A DNA stretch of 11,648 bases from a virus (taxonomy: Duplodnaviria; Heunggongvirae; Uroviricota; Caudoviricetes): positions 1-11,648 of IMG/VR virus record IMGVR_UViG_2671180963_000004; one strand, 5' to 3'. Below the pieces are notes generated by a model. The model was given only the letters and a program-made list of their open reading frames with translations. It did no database searches and was not told the DNA's origin. Position 1 is the first letter of the stretch, and the number at the start of each line of letters is the position of its first letter. This document shows positions 1-11,648 of this stretch, one piece after another. The position numbers and the translations under genes were made by a program.

Positions 1-219
1 TCACATCCACATAATTTGCTGCCCTGACGGCAACGGGTGCGGCCTCACGGCGTGGACTTCTCCCGGCTTCACGATGTATCGCTGTACCGACTCATAAGTG
101 ATGAACGTGGCGCTGCAATTCACGTTCTGACACTGGTGATAACGCTCTTTTGTCGTGTCAGTGATATAGCGACTTGTACGCGCATGTGCGGCATGCTGGC
201 ATAAAGGACAATGAAACAT
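1..219 (-). CDS. ogr: Ogr-type late-gene transcription activator (72 aa zinc-finger protein)
   Basis: Translation from ATG at 217-219 gives MFHCPLCQHAAHARTSRYITDTTKERYHQCQNVNC..., with a C-x2-C-x22-C-x4-C zinc-binding pattern, and matches P2 Ogr as I recall it. SD-like GAGGTG lies 7 nt upstream. The ORF-track extension to 282 is probably not translated. Stop codon is at 1-3. Confidence 0.88.
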   Translation of the reverse strand: MFHCPLCQHAAHARTSRYITDTTKERYHQCQNVNCSATFITYESVQRYIVKPGEVHAVRPHPLPSGQQIMWM

Positions 220-253
220 CGCGAGCACCTCTTCCGGTTTTGTTGATGGTGCC

Positions 254-282
254 ATTTTAGTTAATTTATCCTTATAAAACAA
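254..282 (-). promoter_or_regulatory. Candidate sigma70 promoter for ogr (-35 TTGTTT at 282-277, 17-nt spacer, -10 TAAAAT at 259-254, read on minus strand)
   Basis: Hexamers read by eye in the AT-rich 80-bp spacer between the D remnant stop (301) and the ogr start (219). No other support. Confidence 0.3.
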
Positions 283-300
283 ACAGATAAAATAAAAACA

Positions 301-1179
301 TCACTCATCATCTTCTGTTTCGTACTCCACATCAGAAAGCCTGACCTCAAGCTCCAGGGACGTCGTGAAGCCGCTATTATTCAGAAAATGTGTCACCTTA
401 GTGATTGTCCAGTCCTGCTCGTCTATGACGCGCTTAAAGCCTGATACTTTGACCGGCGTTTCCGTGTAAATATCTGCCCGACCAGTAGCCAGACTGATGG
501 AGAACTCCGCAACGCCCCGTTGCAGCTTATCCCACTTCGCCTGAGCGGCGCGCATGGCCTGCGCTTTCGTGGCATATACCGTGGTCAGGGCAAAAACGTT
601 GTCAGCCTCACCTGCCATGTATTCACCTTCGCGCGCTTCCGGTACTTTTGGCGCTTTCTTCTGCGTGACCGGTTTCGCTTTCGGGTGCTCCAGTGCGCGC
701 AGGTGTTTCTCTTTCTTTTTGCGTTTCAGTTTTACCTTCTGCTTTTGTGGCTTCGGGTCTTTGGTGTGTAACCACTTTGCCGTTACGCCGGTATAGGCTC
801 CACGGTCAGCAATCGCAAAATGATGGCGGTCGCCGTCGCTGCGGGTTATGGTGACCTGCGGGATTTTTTTACCACTGGCCGTCACCCCCTGCCCCGCTTT
901 GAGAAACAACAATTTTCCCATTTTTACCGACACCTCACCGCCGTTGCGTTCAGCAAGACGGGTCAGGAATTTCGCATCGGACTCCTGCGACTGGTCGATG
1001 TGCGGGATTTTAATTCCGGCCAGTGACGGAGCGACACTGGCCTCCAGCCTGTTACGGGAGGCTATCGCCTCAACAATCGCACCGAGTGTGGTGTCATGCC
1101 AGGAGCCTTCCCGGCGGGAATTGAGCGTCCCGCGAAAATCTGCACTCCGGGCGCGGATGGTAATCCGGCCAGATGACCA
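301..1179 (-). pseudogene. D: Tail protein D (P2 gpD-like), 5'-truncated or frame-disrupted remnant
   Basis: Called ORF 301-933 begins at a GTG. Manual in-frame translation continues upstream as ...ITIRARSADFRGTLNSRREGSWHDTTLGAIVEAIASRNRLEASVAPSLAGIKIPHIDQSQESDAKFLTRLAERNGGEVSVKMGKLLFLKAGQG..., up to an in-frame TGA at 1180-1182. No plausible start codon with RBS; an N-terminal portion is missing. Confidence 0.7.
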
Positions 1180-1357
1180 TCAGCTCACGCTGGCTGAAAT
1201 TCTGGCGGTAGGCTTTCACCTCGGAAATGGTCTTACAGCCCCATGCGCTGATATAAAGGGAAATCAGTGTCGCCTTGCGTTCGGCGAGAATGGTTTCAAA
1301 GTCCAGCTCCTCGACCACATCCGGTGCGGGTAGCTGGTTCAGGTCGATAATCGGCAT
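1094..1357 (-). pseudogene. J: Baseplate protein J (P2 gpJ-like) N-terminal stub; only about the first 35 codons look J-like, remainder runs into D-derived DNA out of frame
   Basis: N-terminus MPIIDLNQLPAPDVVEELDFETILAERKATLISLY matches the P2 gpJ N-terminus as I recall it. The ORF is 87 codons, far shorter than a full baseplate J protein of roughly 300 aa. Sits 4 nt downstream of the W stop, as expected for the V-W-J order. Confidence 0.55.
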
Positions 1358-1361
1358 GGTT

Positions 1362-1709
1362 TCAACTCACAGGGATGGTTAACGAAAGTGGCTGGCCGGT
1401 GTCGTTGTGCTGGCCGGTTAACGTGACCGTCATTCGCCCGTCAAAACTGCGCGCCGTAGTGACGGATGACAGGGTGACGCGGGGTTCCCATTTCAGCACC
1501 GCCATGTAACAGGCGACCTTAATCTGCAACTCAAGCGCCTGGGTCTGCGGCTGGTCAATCATTGATGCCAGCAACGAGCCGTAATCACGACGCATCACCC
1601 GTGAGCCGACCGGTGTGCGCAGGATATCGCCGATACTCTGGCTGATATGCTCAAGGTCAGTGACAGTCAGGCCATCACTGCGATTCATTCCGAGATAACG
1701 TGCTGTCAT
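1362..1709 (-). CDS. W: Baseplate protein W (P2 gpW-like, 115 aa)
   Basis: Full-length 115-aa ORF, MTARYLGMNRSDGLTVTDLEHISQSIGDILRTPVGSRVMRRDYGSLLASMIDQPQT.... Its start overlaps the V stop by 4 nt (ATGA). Position V-W-J is syntenic with P2. Confidence 0.85.
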   Translation of the reverse strand: MTARYLGMNRSDGLTVTDLEHISQSIGDILRTPVGSRVMRRDYGSLLASMIDQPQTQALELQIKVACYMAVLKWEPRVTLSSVTTARSFDGRMTVTLTGQHNDTGQPLSLTIPVS

Positions 1710-2341
1710 AGAGGACTCCCGGTTGTGCCGCCGCTGTCTCCTGGGTGTTTGTGGGTATGCAGTACCTTACCGTTTGATGAGAGTTCACCGCCGGTGTGTT
1801 CAATGTTGCCGCGCATCGTCCCGCCCTTCTGCACTTCCAGCGTGCCGGTAATCAGCCTGTTGGTGCAGACCACCTCCGGTGTGTCCAGGGTGACGCGGGT
1901 TGATGCTTTCACCATGACCACCGGCACCGTGGCAGTAACAGAATCAGAAGCCGTCACGCTGACCGTTTTAATTCCGCTTACCGTGAGTGCACTGGTTTCG
2001 GGTTCATATTCAATCACCGCTCCGTCAGGGAAACGGATATGCAGGGCATCCGCCGACGCAGACGGCGCGGGGTTATCGCCGGAATAAATCCCCGGCAGAA
2101 CGAACGCCGTGTCGAGTTCACCGCCCACGGCCAGAATCAGCACCTGCTCCCCCACGGAAGGTGCCCACCATGTGCGCGAACGACCGGCACGATGGGTCAG
2201 CCACTGAAGCCAGTCAGTGCACATGCCGCCGGTCTGCACACGGCAGCGACCGGCGTTAAGGTCGGTTTCGACGACAAGGCCGGTGCGGATCATGTTGCGC
2301 AGTGCGCGCGCGAGTTCCTGAATATTTGCGAGAGTGTTCAT
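1706..2341 (-). CDS. V: Baseplate central spike protein V (P2 gpV-like, 211 aa)
   Basis: 211-aa ORF of the length expected for gpV. Lies between S and W in P2 order. Confidence 0.85.
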   Translation of the reverse strand: MNTLANIQELARALRNMIRTGLVVETDLNAGRCRVQTGGMCTDWLQWLTHRAGRSRTWWAPSVGEQVLILAVGGELDTAFVLPGIYSGDNPAPSASADALHIRFPDGAVIEYEPETSALTVSGIKTVSVTASDSVTATVPVVMVKASTRVTLDTPEVVCTNRLITGTLEVQKGGTMRGNIEHTGGELSSNGKVLHTHKHPGDSGGTTGSPL

Positions 2342-2407
2342 AACGGGAAGGATGCCGCCGGGTCATACCGGCGGCAATGTGACGATGAGGTGTCGGGAAT
2401 GGCACAA

Positions 2408-2860
2408 CTAACGGTCGAGGTGCGCCAGAATAATCTCTTCAATCATCTGCACATCCTCACCGGTAAAGCCGAGCAGGGGACGCGCCGGATAATCAATTTT
2501 CTTACCGTCTTTCCGGTTTTCTTCCGACAGACCGAACTGATGCACACTGGCGATTTTCGGTGACTTTCCGCCGTAAAATTCCATTGATGCCTGTTCCGGG
2601 CTGGCGCGGATATGCAAAAAACGACTGGTGATAAGTTTCGCAAACATTTTTCGCTTAACACGACCAGTCTTTTTTCTGGCGCTCTGCTGCTGGCGTGGCA
2701 CGTAGGGTGTGCCGTCCGGGGCTTTCTGTGCCATCACCCGACGCTGCTGACTCTGCCGCAGGCGCTTCGCCAGTTCGGCACTCAGTCGCCGACGCCCTGA
2801 CGGTGACAGCGATTCAATCAGTCCGGTCAGCCGGTCTTCAAAACGCTTAAACTCATTCAT
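2408..2860 (-). CDS. S: Tail completion protein S (P2 gpS-like, 150 aa)
   Basis: 150-aa ORF; start overlaps the upstream R-frame stop by 8 nt, as in a coupled late operon. Sits in S position upstream of V. Confidence 0.82.
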   Translation of the reverse strand: MNEFKRFEDRLTGLIESLSPSGRRRLSAELAKRLRQSQQRRVMAQKAPDGTPYVPRQQQSARKKTGRVKRKMFAKLITSRFLHIRASPEQASMEFYGGKSPKIASVHQFGLSEENRKDGKKIDYPARPLLGFTGEDVQMIEEIILAHLDR

Positions 2861-3059
2861 CCCACTTACTCACCAGTTCGCCATTGATATAAAGCTCCAT
2901 CGGGCGGGTGACCGGCTCCGGCGGCGGAGGTTCCGGGATATTCTTCACATGCAGCGCGCCGTCCACCTCACTGACCAGCGTGCGCTCGGTCAGCATCAGG
3001 CTGATGCTGATACAGGACAGGATTCGGGAAATAAACGGCTGGCTCGGCCAGGAGGTCAT
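2853..3059 (-). pseudogene. R: Tail completion protein R (P2 gpR-like), 3' fragment only (68 codons)
   Basis: 68-codon ORF ending 8 nt inside the S start, i.e. R position. Manual translation upstream of the ATG at 3057-3059 hits an in-frame stop at 3072-3074. Full-length gpR is roughly twice this size, so this is probably a 5'-truncated remnant. Confidence 0.55.
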
Positions 3060-3105
3060 CCGCTTTAAAAACTACTCACTGGACACTGACAACGGCTGAA
3101 CATCG

Positions 3106-3126
3106 CCGCCTGCGGGCGGCTTTTTT
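3106..3126 (+). terminator. Intrinsic terminator-like hairpin (GCCGCC-TGCG-GGCGGC followed by TTTTTT), plus-strand orientation
   Basis: Perfect 6-bp GC stem with 4-nt loop, followed directly by a T6 run. Oriented for rightward transcription, opposite to the flanking late genes. Consistent with a relic terminator from the far side of a deletion, possibly downstream of gene Q. Confidence 0.4.
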
Positions 3127-3268
3127 ACACCCCGTCATCACGCCCTCACACGCTCACCACCGCACAAAACACCCCGCAGACACACCAACGCCCCGGCGCA
3201 CAATCTAAACGCCATCAAGACGCGCTCAGACGCTGAAAAAATAAAATCAGCACCACCGCCAGCGCGCA

Positions 3269-3287
3269 GTGCTTTCCCCGCCTCGCC
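3269..3287 (-). other. cos: P2/P4-type cohesive end site (cos), 19 nt
   Basis: GTGCTTTCCCCGCCTCGCC at 3269-3287 is the exact reverse complement of the P2/P4 cohesive-end sequence GGCGAGGCGGGGAAAGCAC as I recall it. Orientation agrees with the reversed gene order. Confidence 0.8.
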
Positions 3288-3472
3288 CGCCCGCTTCATG
3301 GGGCATTTTTAATGCAGTTGCATGAACACTCCAAGAGCACACCATCGCTAGTGATAACTAACAATAAAAGCGACTTCTGACGCATGCAAATCCATGCACA
3401 TGATGGCATTTTTCATGATCTATGCGGTATGCTATCCGCTTCAATTTTTAACACTTGTTAAGGGAGCTAGAC

Positions 3473-4615
3473 ATGGACATTATTGATTTAAAATCTCAAC
3501 TAGAAAATGAAGATAATGCCAAGAAAAGAGCAGAGTTGCTTGCTCAGCTAGAGGTGATAAAGCAAAACGCTGAAGAGCAAATTCGTGCTGAGCAAAAGGA
3601 TGTGGATTTTGAGACCAAAGAATTTACCGTTGAGTTATTAGTTAATAAGTATCATAGCGGATTAGAGGATGATACTAACGAACTCTTTGTTCCTGATTAT
3701 CAAAGGGATTTTGTTTGGAGTGAAAAAAGACAATCAAGATTGATAGAGTCTTTGATTTTGGGTTTTCCTATACCATATATATTTACAGCAGATGTTCTCT
3801 CCGAAGATCCCGATTTAGATGGGCGAATTGAGATTGTTGATGGCTCACAGCGAGTTAGGACTATACACGCTTTTATCCAAAATGAATTAGTTTTACAAGA
3901 TCTGAAATCTTTAGACGCCCTTAATGGTTTCAAATTCCAAGATTTACCATTATCACGTCAACGTCGTTTCATGAGAATTCCTGTCCGCGTTATAGAATTG
4001 AGTTCTAAATGCAATGAAGAAACCCGTAGAGATCTTTTTGAACGTATTAACTCTGGCAGCGATATATTGAAAGATATGGAAGTCCGTAAAGGATCAGAAC
4101 TTGGTTCAACAAATTTATATACACAGGTTATTAAGCCATGCTCAACAATACCTAAATTTAAAGAATTAGCACCTTTATCTCAGACTAAAGAAAAACGAGA
4201 TGAACGGTTAGAATTTACATTAAGATTTTTTGCCTACTTAGATAAGTACAAGAACTTTGATCATTCCGTACGGGATTTTCTAAATGACTATATGTTAGAA
4301 AATCGAGATATAGACGAAACTAAACAAAACTCAATGAAACAAGAGTTTGCTAATGTTCTATCTTTTGTTGATAACTATTTCCCAGCAGGATTCAAGAAAA
4401 CTATTACTGCAAAATCTACACCTCGAGTTAGATTCGAATCTCTCGCTGTTGGCGCAGCACTTGCATTACGTGAAATCCCTGACCTTGTTCCCAAGAACTT
4501 GGATTGGCTAAGCTCAGAAGAATTCAAACGATTGACCACTTCAGACGGAGCTAATAGTCGCGTGAAGGTAATTGAACGAATTGAATATGTTCGGGATAAA
4601 TTATTAGAGGATTAA
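3473..4615 (+). CDS. DUF262 (ParB/GmrSD-N-terminal-like) domain protein, about 380 aa, no fused DUF1524/HNH nuclease domain
   Basis: Motifs DYQRDFVW (nt 3695-3718) and IVDGSQR (DGSQR at 3839-3853) are the hallmark QR..VW and DGQQR-type motifs of DUF262. Preferred start is ATG 3473, preceded by SD AGGGAG at 3461-3466; the ORF track uses TTG 3455. No (D/E)HxxP-type nuclease motif seen in the C-terminal half. AT-rich composition. Confidence 0.8.
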   Translation: MDIIDLKSQLENEDNAKKRAELLAQLEVIKQNAEEQIRAEQKDVDFETKEFTVELLVNKYHSGLEDDTNELFVPDYQRDFVWSEKRQSRLIESLILGFPIPYIFTADVLSEDPDLDGRIEIVDGSQRVRTIHAFIQNELVLQDLKSLDALNGFKFQDLPLSRQRRFMRIPVRVIELSSKCNEETRRDLFERINSGSDILKDMEVRKGSELGSTNLYTQVIKPCSTIPKFKELAPLSQTKEKRDERLEFTLRFFAYLDKYKNFDHSVRDFLNDYMLENRDIDETKQNSMKQEFANVLSFVDNYFPAGFKKTITAKSTPRVRFESLAVGAALALREIPDLVPKNLDWLSSEEFKRLTTSDGANSRVKVIERIEYVRDKLLED

Positions 4616-4616
4616 C

Positions 4617-5297
4617 ATGGATCGTTTTCGTGAGGATTTTGACGAAAGGTCAGGAGAGATCTTGGCCTATTTAGATCTTTTGAAATTTATTGAGTATGCC
4701 GGTGCAGAACTGATATCATCTGATGATAAAGAACATAAGTTCTCCATTACTGCTCAATCACGAAAAACTCTAAAGGGGGCAGTATATATTCTATTATATA
4801 ACCTCATTGAATCAACAATGAGAGAAGCTATCTGCCTTATTCATGAGACTATTTATGATAGAAACGTAGAATTTGACAAACTCAGGAAAAATATCAGGTC
4901 AGAAATATTAAAAAGATTAAAAAATGAATCTGTAAATATTGAAAGTTTAGTTAACCGTCTTACTAAAGGTATATCTTGCGGTATATCTTATGGCACTTTC
5001 AACAAAAAGAAAATATTCTCAGGAAATATTGATAGAGAGGAAATCAAAGAAAAATCGAAAATATATGGTTTTTCAACATATTCTGATTACACTCACACTA
5101 AACATGGTGAAAAATTAGCCACTGTCAAACAACATCGTAATGATTTATCTCATGGCAATGTATCATTTGCTGAGATTGGAAAAAATGTTTCATATCAGGA
5201 CTTAGAGAATATTTCATTAGAAGTAATCGCCTATCTTGATGCAATCGCGAATAATATAGAGCACTATATAAATAATAATGAATATTTAGAACAATAG
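4617..5297 (+). CDS. HEPN-like protein with Rx4H motif (putative RNase/nuclease effector), 226 aa
   Basis: ATG at 4617 is 1 nt after the upstream TAA (4613-4615), with SD-like GAGG at 4607-4610, indicating translational coupling. C-terminal region has KQHRNDLSHG, i.e. R174-x4-H179 (cgt 5136-5138, cat 5151-5153), the HEPN signature. Largely helical-looking, K/E-rich sequence. Pairing with a DUF262 protein resembles the MAE_28990/MAE_18760-type HEPN family naming as I recall it. Confidence 0.7.
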   Translation: MDRFREDFDERSGEILAYLDLLKFIEYAGAELISSDDKEHKFSITAQSRKTLKGAVYILLYNLIESTMREAICLIHETIYDRNVEFDKLRKNIRSEILKRLKNESVNIESLVNRLTKGISCGISYGTFNKKKIFSGNIDREEIKEKSKIYGFSTYSDYTHTKHGEKLATVKQHRNDLSHGNVSFAEIGKNVSYQDLENISLEVIAYLDAIANNIEHYINNNEYLEQ

Positions 5298-5303
5298 TAA
5301 TAA

Positions 5304-5320
5304 GGCCTGCAAAGCAGGCC
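5304..5320. terminator. Bidirectional terminator-like hairpin (GGCCTGC-AAA-GCAGGCC) between convergent genes
   Basis: 7-bp perfect stem with 3-nt loop in the 29-bp gap between the HEPN stop (5297) and the methyltransferase stop (5327). Flanked by T-rich sequence on plus (ATTTTAT) and A-rich on the other side. Confidence 0.5.
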
Positions 5321-5326
5321 ATTTTA

Positions 5327-6352
5327 TCATTCTAAATGGTTCTTGATTGATTGCCCAATTGCTTTTCCTAGTTCCACAGGAACAGCATTACCTATCATTT
5401 TCCCAATACTTCTTATAACAAACTTGTCTTTGTCTTCTACAAAGATATAATCCATCGGAAAAGTTTGCAATAAAGCAGCCTCTCTAAGAGAAATCGCTCT
5501 ATGCTGTTCTGGATGTCCAAAACGTCCATTTCCGAAACCATAACAAAGAGTTGTAATTGTTGGACTTGGCTTATCCCAAGACATGCGCCCATATACACTA
5601 GCATATCCTTTACCGCTAGATTTCATATGACAAGCAGCAATCAGCTCCTTCGGCCAGTCCTTCCATGTACCACCAGGAACAGAGTGTATAATTCTTTTTT
5701 TATTAATCGGATTTAATTTACTGGCTCTATGTAATATATCATTTGGATCTGTTTGGCCATCTTCTAACGGAGGAAGATTTCCTATTGCATCTCTAACTGT
5801 TTTCAAAATAACATCGTCACGTTTTACTAACTCAATCGCCCCCAATTTTGAAGCCAACAATACATGACGGGAACGGTTTTGTGGGATTCCATATTCGACA
5901 CAATCAACCTTCGACGCCCAAACATAATAGCCCAACTTTAACAATGAATTATAAAAATCATTATAAACTTTATGTTTAGTTACATCAGGAACGTTCTCCA
6001 TTGTTACGATTTCTGGAGATACTTCGCGAATTAAACGTTCGAACTCATAAAGAAGAGGCCATTTTTTATCATCAGCCTTATCTTTTCCTTGAGTATATTT
6101 TGAAAAAGGTTGGCAAGGTGCGCATCCTGCCAATACTTTTACAGACGCATCACCATAAAGCCTCAGCAGTTCCTCTTTTGTTACTTTAGCGATATCTTGC
6201 TCAATAAACTTAGATTTATTGTTTCTTTCATAGGGAAACCGACATTCCCCCTCAAGGTCTATGCCTGCAACGACATCAAGCCCCGCAAGCTGTAAACCAT
6301 GAGTTAATCCGCCAGCACCACAAAAAAGGTCTATCACCTTTACAGTCATCAT
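5327..6352 (-). CDS. DNA (cytosine-5)-methyltransferase, Dcm/M.HhaI-like, 341 aa
   Basis: Canonical C5-MTase motifs in order: motif I DLFCGAGG (AdoMet binding), motif IV GCAPCQPFS (catalytic PCQ, about 6110-6118), motif VI ENV (about 5990-5998), motif VIII QNRSRHVLLAS, and a C-terminal GNAVPV. SD-like GGAG upstream of the ATG at 6352. Confidence 0.9.
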   Translation of the reverse strand: MMTVKVIDLFCGAGGLTHGLQLAGLDVVAGIDLEGECRFPYERNNKSKFIEQDIAKVTKEELLRLYGDASVKVLAGCAPCQPFSKYTQGKDKADDKKWPLLYEFERLIREVSPEIVTMENVPDVTKHKVYNDFYNSLLKLGYYVWASKVDCVEYGIPQNRSRHVLLASKLGAIELVKRDDVILKTVRDAIGNLPPLEDGQTDPNDILHRASKLNPINKKRIIHSVPGGTWKDWPKELIAACHMKSSGKGYASVYGRMSWDKPSPTITTLCYGFGNGRFGHPEQHRAISLREAALLQTFPMDYIFVEDKDKFVIRSIGKMIGNAVPVELGKAIGQSIKNHLE

Positions 6353-6435
6353 TCACTCCAAATCTATACGATGCTCAGTATACATCCCTTTCTACAAAAT
6401 CTCGAGGCCTAACTTATAAACTCCTATTGATTGAG

Positions 6436-8535
6436 TTAACGCTTCACTGAGTTTGACTCTAATACTGTTGAGAATCCCGGCCACTCATCAGCGACCTGAT
6501 AAGTAAAATGTTTCCCGTCATAATTTACGGTCGCCCCACGCGCCAGCGCCTCAAGCTCCCATCGCTGCGGCCTGATACCGTTCTGAGCGAGGTCAACGCG
6601 GATACGGGTAATTTGCATTCGTTCCGACCGGGTCAGTCTGGCCGATGGTGCCATTTCATACTGTTTTAACGGGCTTCCGTTTCTCTGCTGACGATTTGGT
6701 GTTCTCAGCCCGTGTTTTAATGCGCCCCTGAGCGCCCTCACGACCTCCGGGTCATTCCATTCGATAACACCGTCATCAACCAGATTAAGCACTGCTGCGG
6801 CGTGCTCAGAAGGCGTGGGAGCCGGTAACGAAGTATCACCGCTGGTGAGCTTTCCACAGTTATTGACAGGACTCCGAGGCGCGGCGATGCCGCTTTTTAA
6901 AGTCAAAGGCTCAACGACCGGCACTTTCGGAACAATGCGCCAGTCCGTCGTTCTGGTGATATGAATATGACGCGCGCCGAGATGCGGCGCGTAAATGCCG
7001 ACCACTCTCTCGACTTCTTCCTCGTACTCGTTAACTTCATCCGACGGACTACGGGCGACCCTGACAGTCTGACAATCGCGCGGGACATTTGCCCCACCCT
7101 GCGCGCTGATATACAGCGCAAAATCACCACTGTCTGCGGCGGCGCGTGCAGCCTCGACGCGCTCGTCAAACTCATCAGCAATGCTGACGCCGCGAGGCAA
7201 TTTGCGTAGTTCACGGTAAGCCCCCATTGTCGGCAGGCCAACCGTTTTAAATTGCGGAATGCGCCACGTTGACGCCCATGCGGTAACAGCCGCGGCAGTA
7301 TCTTTCAGCGGTCTGCCGGTATCGTTATCGAGCTGCCCATCCAGTGCATAGCCGTCGATATTTTTTGAGATGTATTTCGCGATATACCCCGCAGCACCGC
7401 CCCGATTAAGATGTTTTGCCTGAAAACGGTTTCGCGCGGCTCCTCTTTCGTCGCCATCCTCTTTGAGCGCATAGCGACGCATGATTTCGATAATCTGGTT
7501 ACGCTGGCGTGGATTACAAAAAAACATCATATGCCAGTGCGGCGTTCCGTCGTGGTGTGGCTCGACGACTCGCAAACCGTAGACCTGTAAATCATTATCC
7601 TTGAATGCCGTGCGCATCAGGCTCCAGATACGGCAGAGATAACGCTGCGCATCCTTTGGATTAAATGCCTCATCGTTCCAGCCGTGATTTAGCTGGACGG
7701 TTTTACTTTCGCCTTTTCCAACCTGACGTGTCGGGTGATACTTTGACGGCGCGGTCAGCGTGATAAACATCCCCACATCACCCTCTGCGGCGGCGTAACG
7801 CTCAATACCGGCAATGGTGTTCATCAGCTCCATCCGGCGAATTTCAGGATTAGAAATACTGCCCATCACCTTACTGATAAGGTCGATGCGCTCGCCTGTT
7901 TCCCTGTTTTCGAGATCACACGATTTAAGAAATTCCAGATTTGCCTGGCGGCGTGCACGCACATCACGAATGGCATGTTTACTGGCATAAGGAGAACGGT
8001 CTTTATTGACCTCCCCGACAGCAATCAGTAACGCCTCATGCCAGCGCATACGCTGGCCTTTAAGCTGATGAGTCCACCACTCATCGTTAAACAGACGGGC
8101 AATGGCAGAATATGCCTGCCTCGTGGTCATCTGTCCTTTACGGTATTTTTTCCAGTAGAGAGGGGAAATATTGAAAGCACGTGCAGCGCCAGCAACATGA
8201 CCATAGAGGTGAGCCTGCGCCTCATCCGTAAACAGCGATTCTTTTTCGCCATGCGCATCCACCCATGCATCGCAGAGTTCCTCATACATCATGAAAAGCT
8301 GCGATGAGATACGGGCGGCAAACTTTTTCAGCTCCTTGTCATTCATTCCAGGCAGGCGCGCATAATGGTCACGCTCTGCCAGAAACAGCAACGACGCGTC
8401 GGTGTTCATTTCATGGCGCTGATTCACGCGCTCAATGCGCGGCCATAAGCGACGCTGAAAAGTGGATGTGAGGAAATAAAACCCGTGCAGCAGGTATTGG
8501 CGCATCACACTCTTCGCAAACCAGCGAAGAAACAC
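6436..8535 (-). CDS. A: Replication initiation protein A (P2 gpA-like rolling-circle HUH endonuclease)
   Basis: HUH motif in PHHDGTPHWHMMFF and tyrosine pair in GYIAKYISKN, typical of P2 A-family initiators. Called start 8533-8535 is a GTG with an in-frame stop 9 nt upstream (8545-8547); an in-frame ATG at 8503-8505 (MRQYLLHGFYF...) is an alternative start. Coding region overlaps the upstream zinc-finger ORF. Confidence 0.85.
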   Translation of the reverse strand: MFLRWFAKSVMRQYLLHGFYFLTSTFQRRLWPRIERVNQRHEMNTDASLLFLAERDHYARLPGMNDKELKKFAARISSQLFMMYEELCDAWVDAHGEKESLFTDEAQAHLYGHVAGAARAFNISPLYWKKYRKGQMTTRQAYSAIARLFNDEWWTHQLKGQRMRWHEALLIAVGEVNKDRSPYASKHAIRDVRARRQANLEFLKSCDLENRETGERIDLISKVMGSISNPEIRRMELMNTIAGIERYAAAEGDVGMFITLTAPSKYHPTRQVGKGESKTVQLNHGWNDEAFNPKDAQRYLCRIWSLMRTAFKDNDLQVYGLRVVEPHHDGTPHWHMMFFCNPRQRNQIIEIMRRYALKEDGDERGAARNRFQAKHLNRGGAAGYIAKYISKNIDGYALDGQLDNDTGRPLKDTAAAVTAWASTWRIPQFKTVGLPTMGAYRELRKLPRGVSIADEFDERVEAARAAADSGDFALYISAQGGANVPRDCQTVRVARSPSDEVNEYEEEVERVVGIYAPHLGARHIHITRTTDWRIVPKVPVVEPLTLKSGIAAPRSPVNNCGKLTSGDTSLPAPTPSEHAAAVLNLVDDGVIEWNDPEVVRALRGALKHGLRTPNRQQRNGSPLKQYEMAPSARLTRSERMQITRIRVDLAQNGIRPQRWELEALARGATVNYDGKHFTYQVADEWPGFSTVLESNSVKR

Positions 8536-8620
8536 CGCAATGTTTTACCCTTGCCGCGTTAATCTGGCGCTCCAGTAATTCAGCCTGTTGTTCCTGAATA
8601 AAATCTACGTTGTCCGGCAT
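8432..8620 (-). CDS. Small TraR/DksA-like zinc-finger protein (possibly degenerate), 62 aa
   Basis: Contains CEECDAPIPAAR, resembling the C-x2-C-G-x-P-I-P-x-x-RR core of TraR-family phage zinc fingers. The expected second CxxC pair is absent in all three frames; the tail is VLFPHIHFSASLMAAH. Overlaps the A start region by about 70-100 nt. Confidence 0.45.
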   Translation of the reverse strand: MPDNVDFIQEQQAELLERQINAARVKHCGVSSLVCEECDAPIPAARVLFPHIHFSASLMAAH

Positions 8621-8622
8621 TA

Positions 8623-8925
8623 TCAGCTCCTTTTATCGTTAAGTTTCCTGGATACATCAGCGCAATAACTGGCGAGTTCTGTCGTTAATTTTGTCAGTTC
8701 ATCCACTGAGGAAATTTGCTTGTGGAACACAGCGCGTTTAACAAGTAAATTGACCACATCAGACAGGAGGTTTAATTCATTCTGATAAATCGCGATAACA
8801 GATTCAGTTATGTCGCGTTTTTCTTTATCAAGACAAAGTTGAATAAGAGACAAATCACCATTTTCCATAACGGCGATTTTTAAGGCGTTATTCAGTAATA
8901 CAACTGAATGAGAACAGGACATCAA
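8623..8925 (-). CDS. Hypothetical small early protein (100 aa), in the B-to-A interval
   Basis: ORF in the same orientation as the early operon; start overlaps the upstream ORF stop by 4 nt (8922-8925). No recognisable motif. Confidence 0.5.
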
Positions 8926-9146
8926 AGCACCTCCCCGCGAGACAATCCGATATTGTGAAATTTTTCCGACTCCTGACTGAGCAGCTCGACTATCTCCACG
9001 CGGGATAACTCCGCCTTTGTGATATGGCGAATCATGGCGTCAAGATGAGAAGAAAAGCGCGTCGCAGCGTCGGCCTGTGCTTCGGTTCTGGCCTGTTGCA
9101 GCAGTAATGCGTATTTACCGCACTGATTTTCAGAAACTGTATGCAT
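8922..9146 (-). CDS. Hypothetical small early protein (74 aa), downstream of B
   Basis: ORF in early-operon orientation, coupled by overlap to the next ORF. No recognisable motif. Confidence 0.5.
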
Positions 9147-9209
9147 GACTTTCTCCAGGCAAAAAGAAGCCCCGCACGATTAAGTGCGTTAAAAACTCTG
9201 GTTAATTAT

Positions 9210-9710
9210 TTAATGCAAATATTGCTCTGGTTTTACCGACGTCAGAATTGTCGGTGCATACTCAAACAGACTGAATAGTTCACGTAATGCACGGAATAAA
9301 GCATCACGCCAGTAACATGACTCTTCATTAATTCGCCAGTATGGCTGATTGAATTCTTTTTCAGTCAATCCGGCATGCATAAATAAAGTACGACGCTGAC
9401 TGACTGTTAAAAAACTAATATATGCATACTCACTTGCGCCAACCTGACGGCGTTTTGAGAATGCCCCACGCAATTCATCAATTGCACAAACCAGCCGTTC
9501 ACGTTCGACGTCGTTCATTTCTTCAAAACGCATCGTTGCGTGACGTTGTTTTAACTGCGCATGAAAGCAAACTGTTAGCCGTTCGCGCTCCATCATCTGA
9601 TTATAATAATCACATGTATCCTGCCAGCGAGGGACGGCAAGATGCTTACCAATTATCCGGCGCATAGCTGCTGGCTGTTTTTCGACGAGATTGAGCGTCA
9701 TCACTGTCAT
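9210..9710 (-). CDS. B: Replication protein B (P2 gpB-like, 166 aa, helicase-loader-type early protein)
   Basis: 166-aa ORF of the length and position (downstream of cox and a small ORF, upstream of A) expected for P2 B. Confidence 0.75.
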   Translation of the reverse strand: MTVMTLNLVEKQPAAMRRIIGKHLAVPRWQDTCDYYNQMMERERLTVCFHAQLKQRHATMRFEEMNDVERERLVCAIDELRGAFSKRRQVGASEYAYISFLTVSQRRTLFMHAGLTEKEFNQPYWRINEESCYWRDALFRALRELFSLFEYAPTILTSVKPEQYLH

Positions 9711-9877
9711 TTCCAGACCCTCCGGCTTTTCAGAAAGGTCAGAGCCTTTTTTAACGGACTCTGTTTTTTGGTGCGGATAATGATTCCCTTACGCCCCTTA
9801 CCGTGGGTGATGGTGAAGTCAATCGCCCTGGGGCTTTCGTTACGCAGTAACTGAGCAATACAACGCGGTTCACTCAT
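9707..9877 (-). CDS. Small early ORF between cox and B (orf78-like position), about 56 aa
   Basis: ORF track starts at ATG 9902-9904, which would overlap the cox 3' end by 25 nt. In-frame ATG at 9875-9877 lies 2 nt after the cox stop and is preferred. Stop overlaps the B start (ATGA-type). Confidence 0.45.
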   Translation of the reverse strand: MSEPRCIAQLLRNESPRAIDFTITHGKGRKGIIIRTKKQSPLKKALTFLKSRRVWK

Positions 9878-9879
9878 AA

Positions 9880-10152
9880 TCACAACCCCATCCACAAAAG
9901 CCATGCATCACGCTGTTCAACTGGTCGGTTATAAAACGCCTCTCGTACAGCGCGATTAAACTCTGGAATGAAAACCCACTTCTCACCGACACGAGCGTTC
10001 GGCTTACTTGGATCACGAAGCTCAATAACTGGCAATTTATTCTCTTTTACCATCTTGACTACAGCCGTTTCTGGCTTACCAAGTAACTCTGCAAACTTAA
10101 CCGTATGTACCGCATCAATCGGGTACTGAATCACATAGTCATTGACTTCCAT
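9880..10152 (-). CDS. cox: Cox (P2-type excisionase/early-promoter regulator), 90 aa
   Basis: 90-aa ORF, first gene of the minus-strand early operon and divergent from C. Region KLPVIELRDPSKPNARVGEKWVFIPEFN...RDAWLLWMGL resembles P2 Cox as I recall it. Confidence 0.78.
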   Translation of the reverse strand: MEVNDYVIQYPIDAVHTVKFAELLGKPETAVVKMVKENKLPVIELRDPSKPNARVGEKWVFIPEFNRAVREAFYNRPVEQRDAWLLWMGL

Positions 10153-10197
10153 TGATTAGCCCTTTTTGCTTTCGTGTTACCCTTATTAGATCCAGCC

Positions 10198-10227
10198 CCT
10201 TCTAGGTCGCCCCTGTCCTTTCTAGGG
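10198..10227. repeat. Direct repeats CCTTCTAGG / CCTTTCTAGG (10198-10206 and 10218-10227): second candidate operator or Cox-box pair
   Basis: Near-identical 9-10-bp direct repeats spaced about 21 bp apart (two helical turns) in the cox-C intergenic region. Confidence 0.3.
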
Positions 10228-10248
10228 ACTGGCTAACACACTCAAAAG

Positions 10249-10292
10249 GTCACCAATACACAACCTTTTGACGGGAATATAAGTCACCAATA
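10249..10292. repeat. Direct repeats GTCACCAATA (10249-10258 and 10283-10292) flanking the candidate Pe -10: candidate repressor (C) or Cox operator half-sites
   Basis: Exact 10-bp direct repeat, 34 bp apart, one copy inside the Pe spacer and one just downstream of the predicted start site. Confidence 0.35.
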
Positions 10293-10304
10293 GGTTACTG
10301 TCAA
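10276..10304 (-). promoter_or_regulatory. Candidate early promoter Pe (minus strand): -35 TTGACA (10304-10299), 17-nt spacer, -10 TATATT (10281-10276)
   Basis: Near-consensus hexamers with 17-bp spacing, read on the minus strand. Lies on the C-proximal side of the cox-C intergenic region, consistent with the face-to-face Pe/Pc arrangement described for P2. Confidence 0.5.
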
Positions 10305-10598
10305 ATGCAGACATTCGAAAAACTGAAAGCGATTAGGAAAGCAGAAGGCTTAACACAGGCGAAATTCAGCGAAATTAGCGGGATAGCTCTAGGAACAGTC
10401 AAAAATTACGAAAGTGGGCATAAAGACCCTGGTCTCAGCATCGTTATGCGAGTCACAAATACGCCTTTATTTAAAAAATATACGCTCTGGTTAATGACTG
10501 GTGATACGTCACCACAAGCTGGTCAGATCGCGCCGGCTCTCGCACACATTGGGCAAAAACCAACAGAATCAGACCGCTCCGAAAAACAGACTGGTTAA
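10305..10598 (+). CDS. C: Immunity repressor C (P2 C-like, 97 aa, HTH)
   Basis: N-terminal helix-turn-helix region LTQAKFSEISGIALGTVKNYESG. C-terminal KYTLWLMTGDTSPQAGQIAPALAHIGQ closely resembles P2 C as I recall it. Divergent from cox and upstream of int. Confidence 0.82.
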   Translation: MQTFEKLKAIRKAEGLTQAKFSEISGIALGTVKNYESGHKDPGLSIVMRVTNTPLFKKYTLWLMTGDTSPQAGQIAPALAHIGQKPTESDRSEKQTG

Positions 10599-10667
10599 CA
10601 CTCTATAAACATTACATTTTCACCATTTGTTACCAAGATGGTGAATACAGCGTCAGAGGGCTTTCTT

Positions 10668-11648
10668 ATGTCAATTAAGAAGCTCGATGATGGACGCTAT
10701 GAAGTGGACATTAGACCTCGCGGTCGCGACGGAAAACGCATCCGCAGGAAATTTGAAAGAAAAGCTGAGGCTGTAGCATTTGAGCGATACACAATCGCCT
10801 ACGCCAGCCAGAAAGAATGGGCAGGTCAGCGAGCAGATCGCAGAACTTTGAGTGAGTTGCTGGACATCTGGTGGAAATATCACGGGCAAAACCACGAGCA
10901 TGGAACAAAAGAGTTTAATCATCTGCTCAAAACCATCAGCGGCATAGGTGATATACCAGTGAGCCGGATGAGCAAAAGAGCTTTGATGGATTATCGTTCC
11001 ATGCGACTACGAAATGGTATCAGTGCCGCAACGATAAACCGTGACATGTACCGATTATCCGGCATGTTCACAAAATTAATTCAATTGGATGAATTTTCCG
11101 GGCAACACCCAATTCACGGACTGCCGCCACTGGCGGAGGCCAACCCTGAAATGACGTTCCTGGAAAAAGCAGAAATCGAAAAACTGTTAAATGTTTTGGA
11201 TGGTGATGACTTACTTGTCGCACTTTTATGTCTGAGCACTGGAGGAAGATGGACGGAAGTTGCCACGCTAAAACCAGCACAGATTACAAATTGCAGGGTT
11301 ACCTTCCTGAAAACCAAAAACGGTAAAAAGCGAACCGTGCCGATTTCTGAGGAACTGGAGAAAAAAGTTAAAGAGGAGGCCAGCGCTAAATTATTCAAAG
11401 TTGATTATGAGAAGTTTTGCGGGATTTTACGCAGAGTGAAGCCAGATATACCACCCAATCAGGCAACCCACATCCTGCGGCATACATTCGCAAGCCATTT
11501 CATGATGAATGGGGGCAATATAATCGCACTGCAACAGATTCTGGGACATGCGAGCATTCAGCAGACGATGGCCTATGCGCACCTTGCGCCTGACTACCTG
11601 CAAAATGCCGTCGCGCTGAATCCTCTAAAAGGCGGAGTGACGTTATAA
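10668..11648 (+). CDS. int: Tyrosine integrase (P2 Int-like), about 326 aa
   Basis: MSIKKLDDGRYEVDIRP... matches the P2 Int N-terminus as I recall it. C-terminal catalytic region HILRHTFASHFMMNGGNIIALQQILGHASIQQTMAYAHL carries the H-x-x-R box and Tyr of tyrosine recombinases. Preferred start is ATG 10668 with SD AGAGGG at 10655-10660; the ORF track starts at 10638. Stop is at 11646-11648, the window edge. Confidence 0.9.
   Translation: MSIKKLDDGRYEVDIRPRGRDGKRIRRKFERKAEAVAFERYTIAYASQKEWAGQRADRRTLSELLDIWWKYHGQNHEHGTKEFNHLLKTISGIGDIPVSRMSKRALMDYRSMRLRNGISAATINRDMYRLSGMFTKLIQLDEFSGQHPIHGLPPLAEANPEMTFLEKAEIEKLLNVLDGDDLLVALLCLSTGGRWTEVATLKPAQITNCRVTFLKTKNGKKRTVPISEELEKKVKEEASAKLFKVDYEKFCGILRRVKPDIPPNQATHILRHTFASHFMMNGGNIIALQQILGHASIQQTMAYAHLAPDYLQNAVALNPLKGGVTL

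Follow-up and report, generated by a model that had tools for sequence, protein, structure and literature searches.

Does an 11.6-kb sequence derived from phage P2 represent an element that a helper phage can mobilise, or is it what remains of a decaying prophage? The stretch of DNA analysed here (the window; 11,648 bp) raises this question, as an earlier note had read it as a miniaturised P2 element with a possible route of packaging through cos. Alignment with phage Wphi (Peduovirus Wphi, NC_005056) resolved the window into six collinear blocks of 93-98% identity from ogr to int, and 132 phage records matched it. The extent proposed by the note, from ogr to the int stop codon, was upheld by this alignment, and the entire window from the ogr stop to the int stop is a Wphi-type P2-like (Peduovirus) prophage remnant (Table 1). 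The element is thus P2-derived and cut down to the early region, cargo, cos and ogr. It shares with Wphi, and with the full-length Wphi-type prophage of E. coli CFSAN064036, the integrase, immunity, attP/attB (the cpxP terminator), cos and the hotspot between A and cos.

Table 1. Features of the window, numbered from its first nucleotide, with the evidence for each assignment.
Feature	Position	Strand	Evidence
ogr, late-gene activator, 72 aa, intact	1-219	-	Pfam Ogr_Delta 1.1e-21; maps to Wphi ogr; stop codon is the first triplet of the window
D' pseudogene, 3' three-quarters of tail gene D (codons 102-388)	301-1161	-	Maps to Wphi 21278-22138
FI (tail-sheath gene) scrap, 97 bp between two deletion junctions	1159-1255	-	Wphi 16316-16412, 97.9%
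J' pseudogene, first 104 nt of baseplate gene J	1254-1357	-	Wphi mapping, junction sequence
W, baseplate wedge subunit, 115 aa, intact	1362-1709	-	PHROG 43, 2.6e-52; PF04965
V, baseplate spike/assembly protein, 211 aa, intact	1706-2341	-	PHROG 6142; PF04717/PF18715
S, tail completion protein, 150 aa, intact	2408-2860	-	PHROG 26, 1.5e-57; PF05069
R' pseudogene, 3' ~160 nt of tail gene R	2853-3011	-	Wphi 8764-8923
Q' pseudogene, last ~90-100 nt of portal gene Q	3012-3100	+	Wphi 188-287
cos region	3105-3331	-	19-nt cohesive end 3269-3287; 55-bp P2/P4-shared core 3262-3316; conserved flanks
Cargo gene 1, DUF262/GmrSD_N protein, 380 aa	3473-4615	+	Pfam GmrSD_N 6.4e-26
Cargo gene 2, MAE_28990-type HEPN protein, 226 aa	4617-5297	+	Pfam HEPN_MAE_28990 2.8e-29
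Cargo gene 3, C-5 cytosine DNA methyltransferase (Dcm), 340 aa	5327-6352	-	Pfam DNA_methylase 4.4e-58
'A, replication initiator gene, start and ~first 82 codons missing	6436-8489	-	Wphi 26470-28503; aligned with P2, CFSAN and 186 A proteins
Junction of 599-bp deletion (orf82 3' end, all orf83, A 5' end)	8484-8489	.	Wphi mapping
orf82', TraR/DksA-like zinc-finger gene, 3'-truncated, fused out of frame	8490-8620	-	Wphi mapping
orf81 and orf80 (DUF5405, DUF2732), intact	8623-9146	-	Pfam/PHROG profiles
B, replication, lagging-strand synthesis, 166 aa, intact	9210-9710	-	PF26815 Phage_RepB; PHROG 235
orf78 and cox (excisionase and Pc repressor), intact	9707-10152	-	PHROG 272 Cox-like 6.2e-46; PF10743
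C immunity repressor, 97 aa, Wphi immunity type	10305-10598	+	98.2% nucleotide identity to Wphi (8484-11648); PHROG 147
int, tyrosine integrase, 326 aa, intact	10668-11648	+	Pfam Int_N and Phage_integrase; stop codon closes the window

The source contig was matched at 100% identity in E. coli assembly GCA_001283625.2, where the remnant lies between cpxP and fieF. Late genes just beyond the window, which would have refuted the note's reading, were not there; the neighbours were cpxP/cpxR on one side and fieF/pfkA on the other. The att direct repeats that had been expected just outside the window were found as a 47-bp repeat (1 mismatch) on both sides of the element, giving an intact attL 115 nt past the window end and an intact attR 112 nt ahead of its start, and the attP arms were those of Wphi apart from single-base differences. 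From att to att the element measured 11,921 bp, which is 35% of P2 (33,593 bp) and 39% of the closest full-length sibling prophage (30,824 bp); the earlier figure of about one third of P2 was therefore a loose one.

Relative to Wphi, the genes P, O, N, M, L, X, Y, K, lysABC, I, H, G, FII, E, T and U were absent, and what was left of Q, R, J, FI and D was fragmentary, a total of ~1.3 kb of late-gene debris. The reported loss of the capsid, terminase, lysis, sheath/tube, tape-measure and fibre genes was thus correct, apart from the 97-bp scrap of FI, but the inventory had passed over the intact tail and baseplate genes S, V and W as well as the five gene fragments. D' has no start codon, its translation meets stops upstream of the junction, and Pfam Phage_GPD matched at profile positions 151-304 only. 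J' is fused into an 87-aa open reading frame (1094-1357) for which a Pfam search returned no hit, and a 68-aa frame at 2853-3059 crosses the R'/Q' junction. Q' is followed by the terminator tQ (about 3101-3130), placed from the P2 annotation and by reading the sequence. The complete morphogenesis, packaging and lysis set that a functional prophage needs is lacking, which makes this a defective, or cryptic, member of its family; judged by gene content, the element is unable to make virions.

Microhomology of 1-3 bp was present at all four deletion junctions, which argues for piecemeal decay rather than streamlined design. Each junction joins unique sequence and not repeats, and this also bears on the idea that a full-length prophage was collapsed by misassembly. 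Repeats can collapse in short-read assemblies, and the structure is missing from the complete (long-read) E. coli genomes, but the same junctions recurred in about 10 independently assembled contigs (NCBI and Logan runs) and a 137-kb contig spans the element together with both flanks. An artefact of assembly is scarcely credible.

The replication genes A and B had both been listed as kept. B is indeed full length, but A has lost its 5' end to a 599-bp deletion that is not present in one sibling contig. The truncated gene still encodes the complete Pfam Phage_GPA domain (1-321/321), and the ori nick site (6862-6887), an exact match to the P2 ori 26-mer, is kept within it; the ~82 missing codons include a WNAPR motif conserved with phage 186. 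Rolling-circle replication calls for an intact A initiator together with ori, and here the sequence provides the ori but a truncated A. The 62-aa frame created by the orf82' fusion (8432-8620) gave no hit in a Pfam search.

Retention of int and of C/cox immunity was corroborated, all being full length by Pfam and PHROG profiles. With attL and attR, int and cox make up an excision and integration module that is complete by sequence. The C repressor would be expected to silence the early operon and to confer immunity to Wphi-immune phages. In the hotspot between A and cos, the first cargo gene resembles NsnA (PADLOC 2.1e-54) and PD-T4-2_A (PADLOC 5.3e-35) and has a GC content of ~35%, compared with ~55% for the backbone. 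The DUF262, HEPN and Dcm cargo probably still defends the host.

The exact cos site described earlier is present. The P2 cohesive-end 19-mer GGCGAGGCGGGGAAAGCAC had a single exact occurrence, with 0 expected by chance (200 shuffles). The cos core was identical to that of P2 at 52/55 positions, equal to the functional cos of Wphi and P4, and at 55/55 to that of the full-length prophage of CFSAN064036. Disruption of the cos-flanking sequence, which would have refuted the packaging proposal, was not seen: the core and the flanks, in a block delimited by its conservation across Peduoviridae, are undisturbed and the same as in the full-length prophage. A packaging signal that a helper could recognise thus appears intact. 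An intact cos, together with intact attL, attR, int and cox, supplies the least that mobilisation through cos would need, and helper packaging by this route is possible in principle, as the note had held; functions like those of P4, however, are absent, and the sequence data lend the idea no support.

The likeness to P4 (NC_001609, 11,624 bp) extends to an integrative lifestyle, the 55-bp cos core, a defence hotspot adjoining cos (PMC9122126) and a zinc-finger activator of the Ogr/Delta family, and the window (11.65 kb) and the att-to-att length (11.9 kb) are near the size of P4. It is nevertheless very improbable that this is a purpose-evolved satellite of the P4 kind assembled from P2 parts. 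Although the resemblance in size noted earlier is real, the size is the sum of an 8.4-kb int-to-cos block and ~3 kb of debris, and it is not conserved among siblings (12.5, 11.9 and 9.6 kb). The activator is the ordinary ogr of P2 and not P4 delta. Wphi genes and the three cargo genes account for the whole window, and Wphi mapping, Pfam, PADLOC and PHROG found in it none of the features peculiar to P4: the replicon built on the alpha primase/helicase with its ori/crr, the genes sid and psu for capsid size and stability, epsilon, which derepresses the helper, an immunity system of its own and a different integrase. Useless gene fragments and orphan tail genes are carried, and divergence from an ordinary full-length prophage stays below 0.3% along most of the element. 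Gene content effectively refutes the satellite reading.

That prophage, in CFSAN064036, occupies the same attB and carries the identical DUF262, HEPN and Dcm cargo on a backbone 96.8-99.97% identical to that of the element. The two were 99.7-99.97% identical over 1254-11648, whereas the D/ogr end of the window (3-1161) diverged by ~3%. Compared with Wphi and the CFSAN064036 prophage, late genes amounting to ~19 kb are missing from the window, as is the 5' end of A, and the element is unable to form particles. Intact cos, attL/attR, int and cox are not what purely neutral decay predicts, and count against a reading of decay; given the youth of the remnant (no more than 0.3% divergence over 1254-11648), their intactness says little either way.

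Carriers numbered ~10 assemblies, a small sample, with the same late-gene junctions in ~10 contigs, and every carrier contig that reaches into the chromosome sits at the cpxP/fieF site. Three sibling contigs had 0 mismatches to the source contig in their flanks (812-2,367 bp per side), and those of one further carrier contig were likewise identical. Other E. coli strains, by comparison, had 3-13 mismatches to the source contig in the left flank (1,411 bp) and 18-53 in the right flank (2.5-4.6 kb compared). The element junction was not found in 5,426 complete E. coli genomes, GTDB species representatives, IMG/VR or JGI metagenomes; a search for horizontal spread (unrelated backgrounds, other sites, viral collections) found none, and all comparable flanks were identical. 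Within the lineage the A region existed in three nested states: A intact (12.5 kb), the window form lacking 599 bp (11.9 kb), and a form lacking ~2.9 kb including ori (~9.6 kb). This evidence favours vertical transmission within a single E. coli lineage, with the replication module still being lost.

Could such an element nonetheless hitch a ride? The element, excised by Int/Cox as an 11.9-kb circle, would have its cos recognised by the terminase of a co-infecting P2-like phage, be packaged as a dimer or trimer in the helper's T=7 capsids, and so spread its defence cargo. In addition to the exact cos with its undisturbed flanks and the intact att sites with int and cox, one sibling form keeps an intact A and ori. 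P2 machinery packages a plasmid carrying only a P4-derived cos (PMC9942202), and a P2-size head can hold three P4 genomes, though inefficiently (PMC6893505). The P2/P4 cos cosmids (pACK57, P4 cosmid) show that P2 machinery needs no more than a cos site on a replicating circle to package the DNA (PMC9942202); these, however, are plasmids present in many copies in a P2 delta-cos lysogen under induction, whereas the element exists once, in the chromosome, under repression and with its replication gene impaired. The experimental precedent is Sp13 of E. coli O157:H7 Sakai, a defective P2-like prophage from which most morphogenetic genes are gone but in which integration and early functions persist. 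It was shown to undergo excision and amplification, and was detected in particles (Asadulghani et al. 2009, PMC2669165). Sp13 differs in that its replication works and in having a P4 epsilon-like gene, which may explain its induction; the window has no such gene, and its A is truncated.

Against this stand the truncation of A in the present copy and its full deletion in another sibling. P2 A is cis-acting, according to the title of Liu et al. (1993), which makes it unlikely that a helper would replicate the element. Moreover, the resident C repressor controls cox and A, and a heteroimmune helper has no known route to their derepression, while a homoimmune helper, whose Wphi-type Int and Cox would match, would be subject to repression too; this derepression problem is the bottleneck discussed for proto-hitchers (PMC11389934). 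Capsid-size redirection is absent, and a trimer of 35.8 kb would be 116% of the parent genome and 106% of P2. Finally, the identical flanks of all flank-sequenced carriers, with none elsewhere or in viral collections, give no sign of movement. Such helper-driven transfer is unlikely.

Cryptic Wphi-type remnants in E. coli strains K_EC180, GmF046 and H2 provide a wider comparison. They are 11.5-12.7 kb long from att to att, occupy the same attB and keep int-C-cox-B-A, hotspot cargo, cos and ogr, with most late genes deleted at independent endpoints (P'..U', P'..D' and O'..ogr'); their A is intact, the portal gene is kept, and the cargo differs (HNH; BbrUII/HgiDII restriction-modification; HIRAN and exonuclease). 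That several independent remnants of this size keep int to cos and ogr at one attB could hint at selection, but a floor effect and listing bias in the search also explain the pattern. A general version of the mobilisation idea, in which young P2 remnants keeping att, int, cox, cos and ogr, such as this one and its independent counterparts at the same attB, act as transient 'proto-satellites', their multimers sometimes packaged through cos by heteroimmune P2-like helpers that move defence cargo between strains before further decay, is improbable.

Very probably the window is a Wphi-type P2-like prophage that has become cryptic (defective); it occupies the cpxP/fieF attachment site, and would be vertically inherited and still shrinking. 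In the proposed course of events, a full prophage of ~31 kb would have lost ~19 kb of late genes by at least three illegitimate (microhomology) deletions (Q..R, J..FI and FI..D), and a later deletion of a further 599 bp would have taken the 5' end of A. Left behind are int/C/cox with Wphi immunity, part of the early operon, the cargo, cos, ogr and both att sites, along with three orphan tail genes and five gene fragments. Loss of A and ori was presumably tolerated or favoured, because replication from an unpackageable prophage would be useless or harmful. The element is an ordinary cryptic prophage, a passively inherited remnant with no sign of helper-driven movement.

The element shows a P2-type prophage whittled down to an immunity module and a defence-gene hotspot, with three successive deletion states captured in one bacterial lineage and the replication gene the next to be lost. 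If helper packaging were demonstrated, it would illustrate in nature how a defective prophage takes its first step towards becoming a satellite, and would offer a means of disseminating hotspot defence systems.

The window was identical to contig CYEL01000013.1 of the E. coli assembly GCA_001283625.2 (100% identity across all 11,648 bases), where cpxP and fieF flank the element; the contig was reached through a 68-aa ORF of the window that spans the R′/Q′ deletion junction. A 47-bp att direct repeat, GACACCATCCCTGTCTTCCCCCACATG[A/C]TGTGGGGGTTTTTTTTATC, was found on both sides of it; the arm sequences beside the repeats matched Wphi attP, and the attachment core, just 3′ of cpxP, overlaps the putative cpxP terminator. 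The predicted excised circle (att-to-att) is 11,921 bp. As the window starts at the stop codon of ogr and ends at that of int, it holds the entire prophage except for the att sites, and does so in reverse orientation. The earlier note had recognized that the missing late genes might be present just outside the window. None were there: the neighbouring genes are cpxP/cpxR/cpxA and fieF/pfkA, which excludes this arrangement.

Every segment of the window could be assigned through its nucleotide identity with annotated phages, and alignment with Wphi (NC_005056) gave six collinear minus-strand blocks. Pfam, PHROGs and precomputed Pfam hits led to the same gene assignments, and no tRNA genes were found in the window. 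Consistent with what had been noticed from the sequence, the Wphi alignment placed no capsid, terminase, lysis, tube, tape-measure or fibre genes in the window, and int, C and cox were all full length. The statement that the replication genes are kept held for B, which is full length, but not for A, which is truncated at its 5′ end.

Features of the window and their counterparts in Wphi (NC_005056)
Feature	Window	Wphi	Basis
ogr and 3′ three-quarters of D	1–1161	22438–21278	BLAST
Scrap of sheath gene FI, 97 bp	1159–1255	16412–16316	BLAST
First 104 nt of J, then W, V, S, then last ~160 nt of R	1254–3012	10522–8764	BLAST
Last ~100 nt of portal gene Q, tQ terminator, left cos flank	3000–3287	287–1	BLAST
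Low-GC cargo	3288–6455	no match	BLAST
A minus first ~244 nt	6456–8489	28503–26470	BLAST
5′ part of orf82, orf81, orf80, B, orf78, cox, C, int	8484–11648	25876–22712	BLAST
V, W and truncated J fusion	1094–2341
S–V intergenic region	2342–2407
Block around cos conserved across Peduoviridae	3105–3331
55-bp cos core	3262–3316
P2 19-nt cohesive end	3269–3287
TGCAT-containing motif	3370–3395
Three-gene cargo island	3473–6352
ori nick site	6862–6887
Junction of 599-bp deletion	8484–8489
Further loss in L018	6609–8913

All four deletion junctions were simple joins with 1–3 bp of microhomology, for which illegitimate recombination is the typical source. Of the late genes, S, V and W are intact, and Q, R, J, FI and D survive only as fragments, D′ lacking a start codon and having stop codons upstream. 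S, V and W are useless on their own, and their retention together with these fragments indicates that the element is not streamlined. The S–V intergenic region is preserved; its P2 counterpart is annotated with the Ogr-activated pV promoter, putative here, so V, W and a truncated 87-aa J fusion could come to be expressed, either through the resident ogr or upon infection by a P2-like phage.

As to the coincidence in size with satellite P4 pointed out earlier, the length is made up of an int-to-cos block of 8.4 kb with the cargo, ogr (0.3 kb) and ~3 kb of late-gene debris; from the first two, no remnant that keeps both ends can be shorter than ~8.7 kb. At least three independent Wphi-type remnants of 11.5–12.7 kb occupy the same cpxP/fieF attB, namely those of K_EC180, GmF046 and H2 (11,491, 12,740 and 12,066 bp att-to-att, respectively). 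In each, one large deletion took out late genes between endpoints that differ from remnant to remnant, and int-C-cox-B-A, cos, Q and ogr are kept throughout; their hotspot cargo is, respectively, an HNH endonuclease, a BbrUII/HgiDII R-M system, and HIRAN with a 3′-5′ exonuclease. Among the listed matches with both ends joined, ogr-to-int spans were 11.2, 11.8, 11.9, 12.5, 14.5 and 14.9 kb, with longer ones of 15.5, 17.3, 19.2, 22.9 and 25.3 kb, a broad spread whose floor near 11 kb follows from the length of the int-to-cos block (8.4 kb). Because the search joined pieces only at distances below 6.3 kb, small remnants are over-represented and the spans cannot establish selection for one third of a genome.

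A full-length Wphi-type prophage in E. coli CFSAN064036 (30,824 bp att-to-att) occupies the same attB, carries the same three cargo genes and has an intact A. Its identity to the element was 99.7–99.97% over window positions 1254–11648, and this near-identity marks the window as having arisen very recently, by deletion, from an ordinary Wphi-type prophage. Identity to the same prophage was lower at the D/ogr end (96.8%), which points to mosaic recombination among P2-like prophages. Between ogr and attR the CFSAN064036 prophage also has ~500 bp of inserted sequence, including a 402-nt ORF, that the element lacks.

The cargo is a three-gene island of ~31–38% GC, compared with ~55% in the backbone, and lies beside cos, in the interval from A to Q that is known as a defence hotspot of P2 (Rousset et al. 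2022, PMC9122126). In PADLOC, the DUF262/GmrSD_N protein matched NsnA (2e-54) and PD-T4-2_A (5e-35); the product of the adjoining MAE_28990-type HEPN gene had no PADLOC match. The third gene, convergent, encodes a C5 cytosine methyltransferase. Full-length prophages of NH-21 and others, besides CFSAN064036, contain the same trio.

The truncation of A is due to a 599-bp deletion extending from the 3′ end of orf82 through the whole of orf83 and the start codon of A, with a loss of the first ~82 A codons. The lost N-terminus contained a WNAPR motif common to P2-type A and the A protein of phage 186 (38% identical), and the phage 186 record describes translation of A as coupled to an upstream ORF. 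Both the GPA domain (Pfam) and the ori nick site are still present; judged from its sequence, gene A is most likely crippled. Carrier contigs showed this region in three states. In L005, L016 and similar contigs A, orf82 and orf83 are intact (att-to-att 12,520 bp); seven contigs have the 11,921-bp window form, minus the 599 bp; and L018 (SRR15464320; att-to-att about 9.6 kb) has an extra 2.3-kb deletion compared with the window form, or ~2.9 kb when set against the intact one, spanning orf81′ to almost all of A with the ori nick site included.

All three states occur within a single lineage. The late-gene junctions of the window were the same in ~10 contigs (NCBI and Logan), and every junction-carrying contig that extends into the chromosome does so at the same site. 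The flanks of carrier contigs L005–L007 (812–2,367 bp per side, the full extent of each contig) were 100% identical to the source, from which other E. coli strains differ by 3–13 mismatches in the left flank (1,411 bp) and 18–53 in the right (2.5–4.6 kb). Across 5,426 complete E. coli genomes no place covered ≥80% of the window. An exact scan for the junction 40-mer gave no match in GTDB species representatives, IMG/VR or JGI metagenomes, and thus no sign that the element occurs in viral fractions or in species other than E. coli.

The exact cos site described in the earlier note was confirmed, the P2 19-nt cohesive end being present in a single exact copy where none is expected by chance. The passage of PMC5694545 that cites Ziermann & Calendar 1990 gives P2-family cos sites a 55-bp core. 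With the core boundaries as we read them from the P2/P4 alignment, the window matched P2 at 52/55 positions, the score also obtained by the functional Wphi and P4 sites, and the full-length CFSAN064036 prophage at 55/55; the shared core was intact in alignment with P2, Wphi and P4. Disruption of the cos flanks, which would have spoken against packaging, was excluded: the closest deletion junction is ~257 bp from the cut site and outside the Peduoviridae-conserved block, which is entirely kept. A TGCAT-containing motif, GTGCATGGATTTGCATGCG, lies ~90–110 bp from the cos cut toward the phage right end; P4 has a near-identical counterpart, GTGCATGGCTTTGCATGCG, and the P2 and Wphi versions are looser. 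It may be a terminase-related or regulatory repeat. In the Logan assembly of SRR21934145 (L008, L020) the element is split across contigs that end at the att core and, unusually, within A (window 7527) and 3 nt beyond the cos 19-mer (window 3290). The latter break might come from mere fragmentation or from another cos-bearing element (P2-like or P4-like) in that genome.

Low-frequency mobilisation of the element by a helper is possible in principle but improbable. P2 A is known to act in cis, as Liu et al. 1993 reportedly described, and with A truncated in the window copy a helper should not replicate the element. Resident C would repress cox and A, and an epsilon-like derepressor is absent. 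Helpers with matching Wphi-type Int and Cox have the same immunity and would themselves be repressed, the bottleneck described for proto-hitchers (PMC11389934). A P4-derived cos alone does suffice for packaging of a plasmid by P2 machinery (PMC9942202), and the morphogenesis-defective P2-like prophage Sp13 of O157 Sakai undergoes excision and amplification and was detected in particles (PMC2669165). A P2-size head can be filled, though inefficiently, by three P4 genomes (PMC6893505), but a trimer of the element would be 35.8 kb, or 116% of the length of the parental genome and 106% of that of P2, Sid-like size redirection is absent, and there was no trace of horizontal spread. An adapted satellite is scarcely credible, since of the features that define P4-like satellites the element shares only cos and an Ogr/Delta-type activator. 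Its closest precedents are Sp13, the other cpxP/fieF remnants and the concept of domesticated defective prophages or proto-hitchers.

The element is most likely a cryptic prophage, a defective Wphi-type member of Peduovirus. From its genes we infer that the C repressor, of Wphi immunity type, presumably holds the early operon off and gives immunity to Wphi-immune phages, and that the cargo plausibly still protects the host. The observed structure and inheritance are those of a snapshot on a reduction path, with the replication module being lost, and not of a conserved miniature; the one mildly notable point is the capture of three successive deletion states in a single clone.
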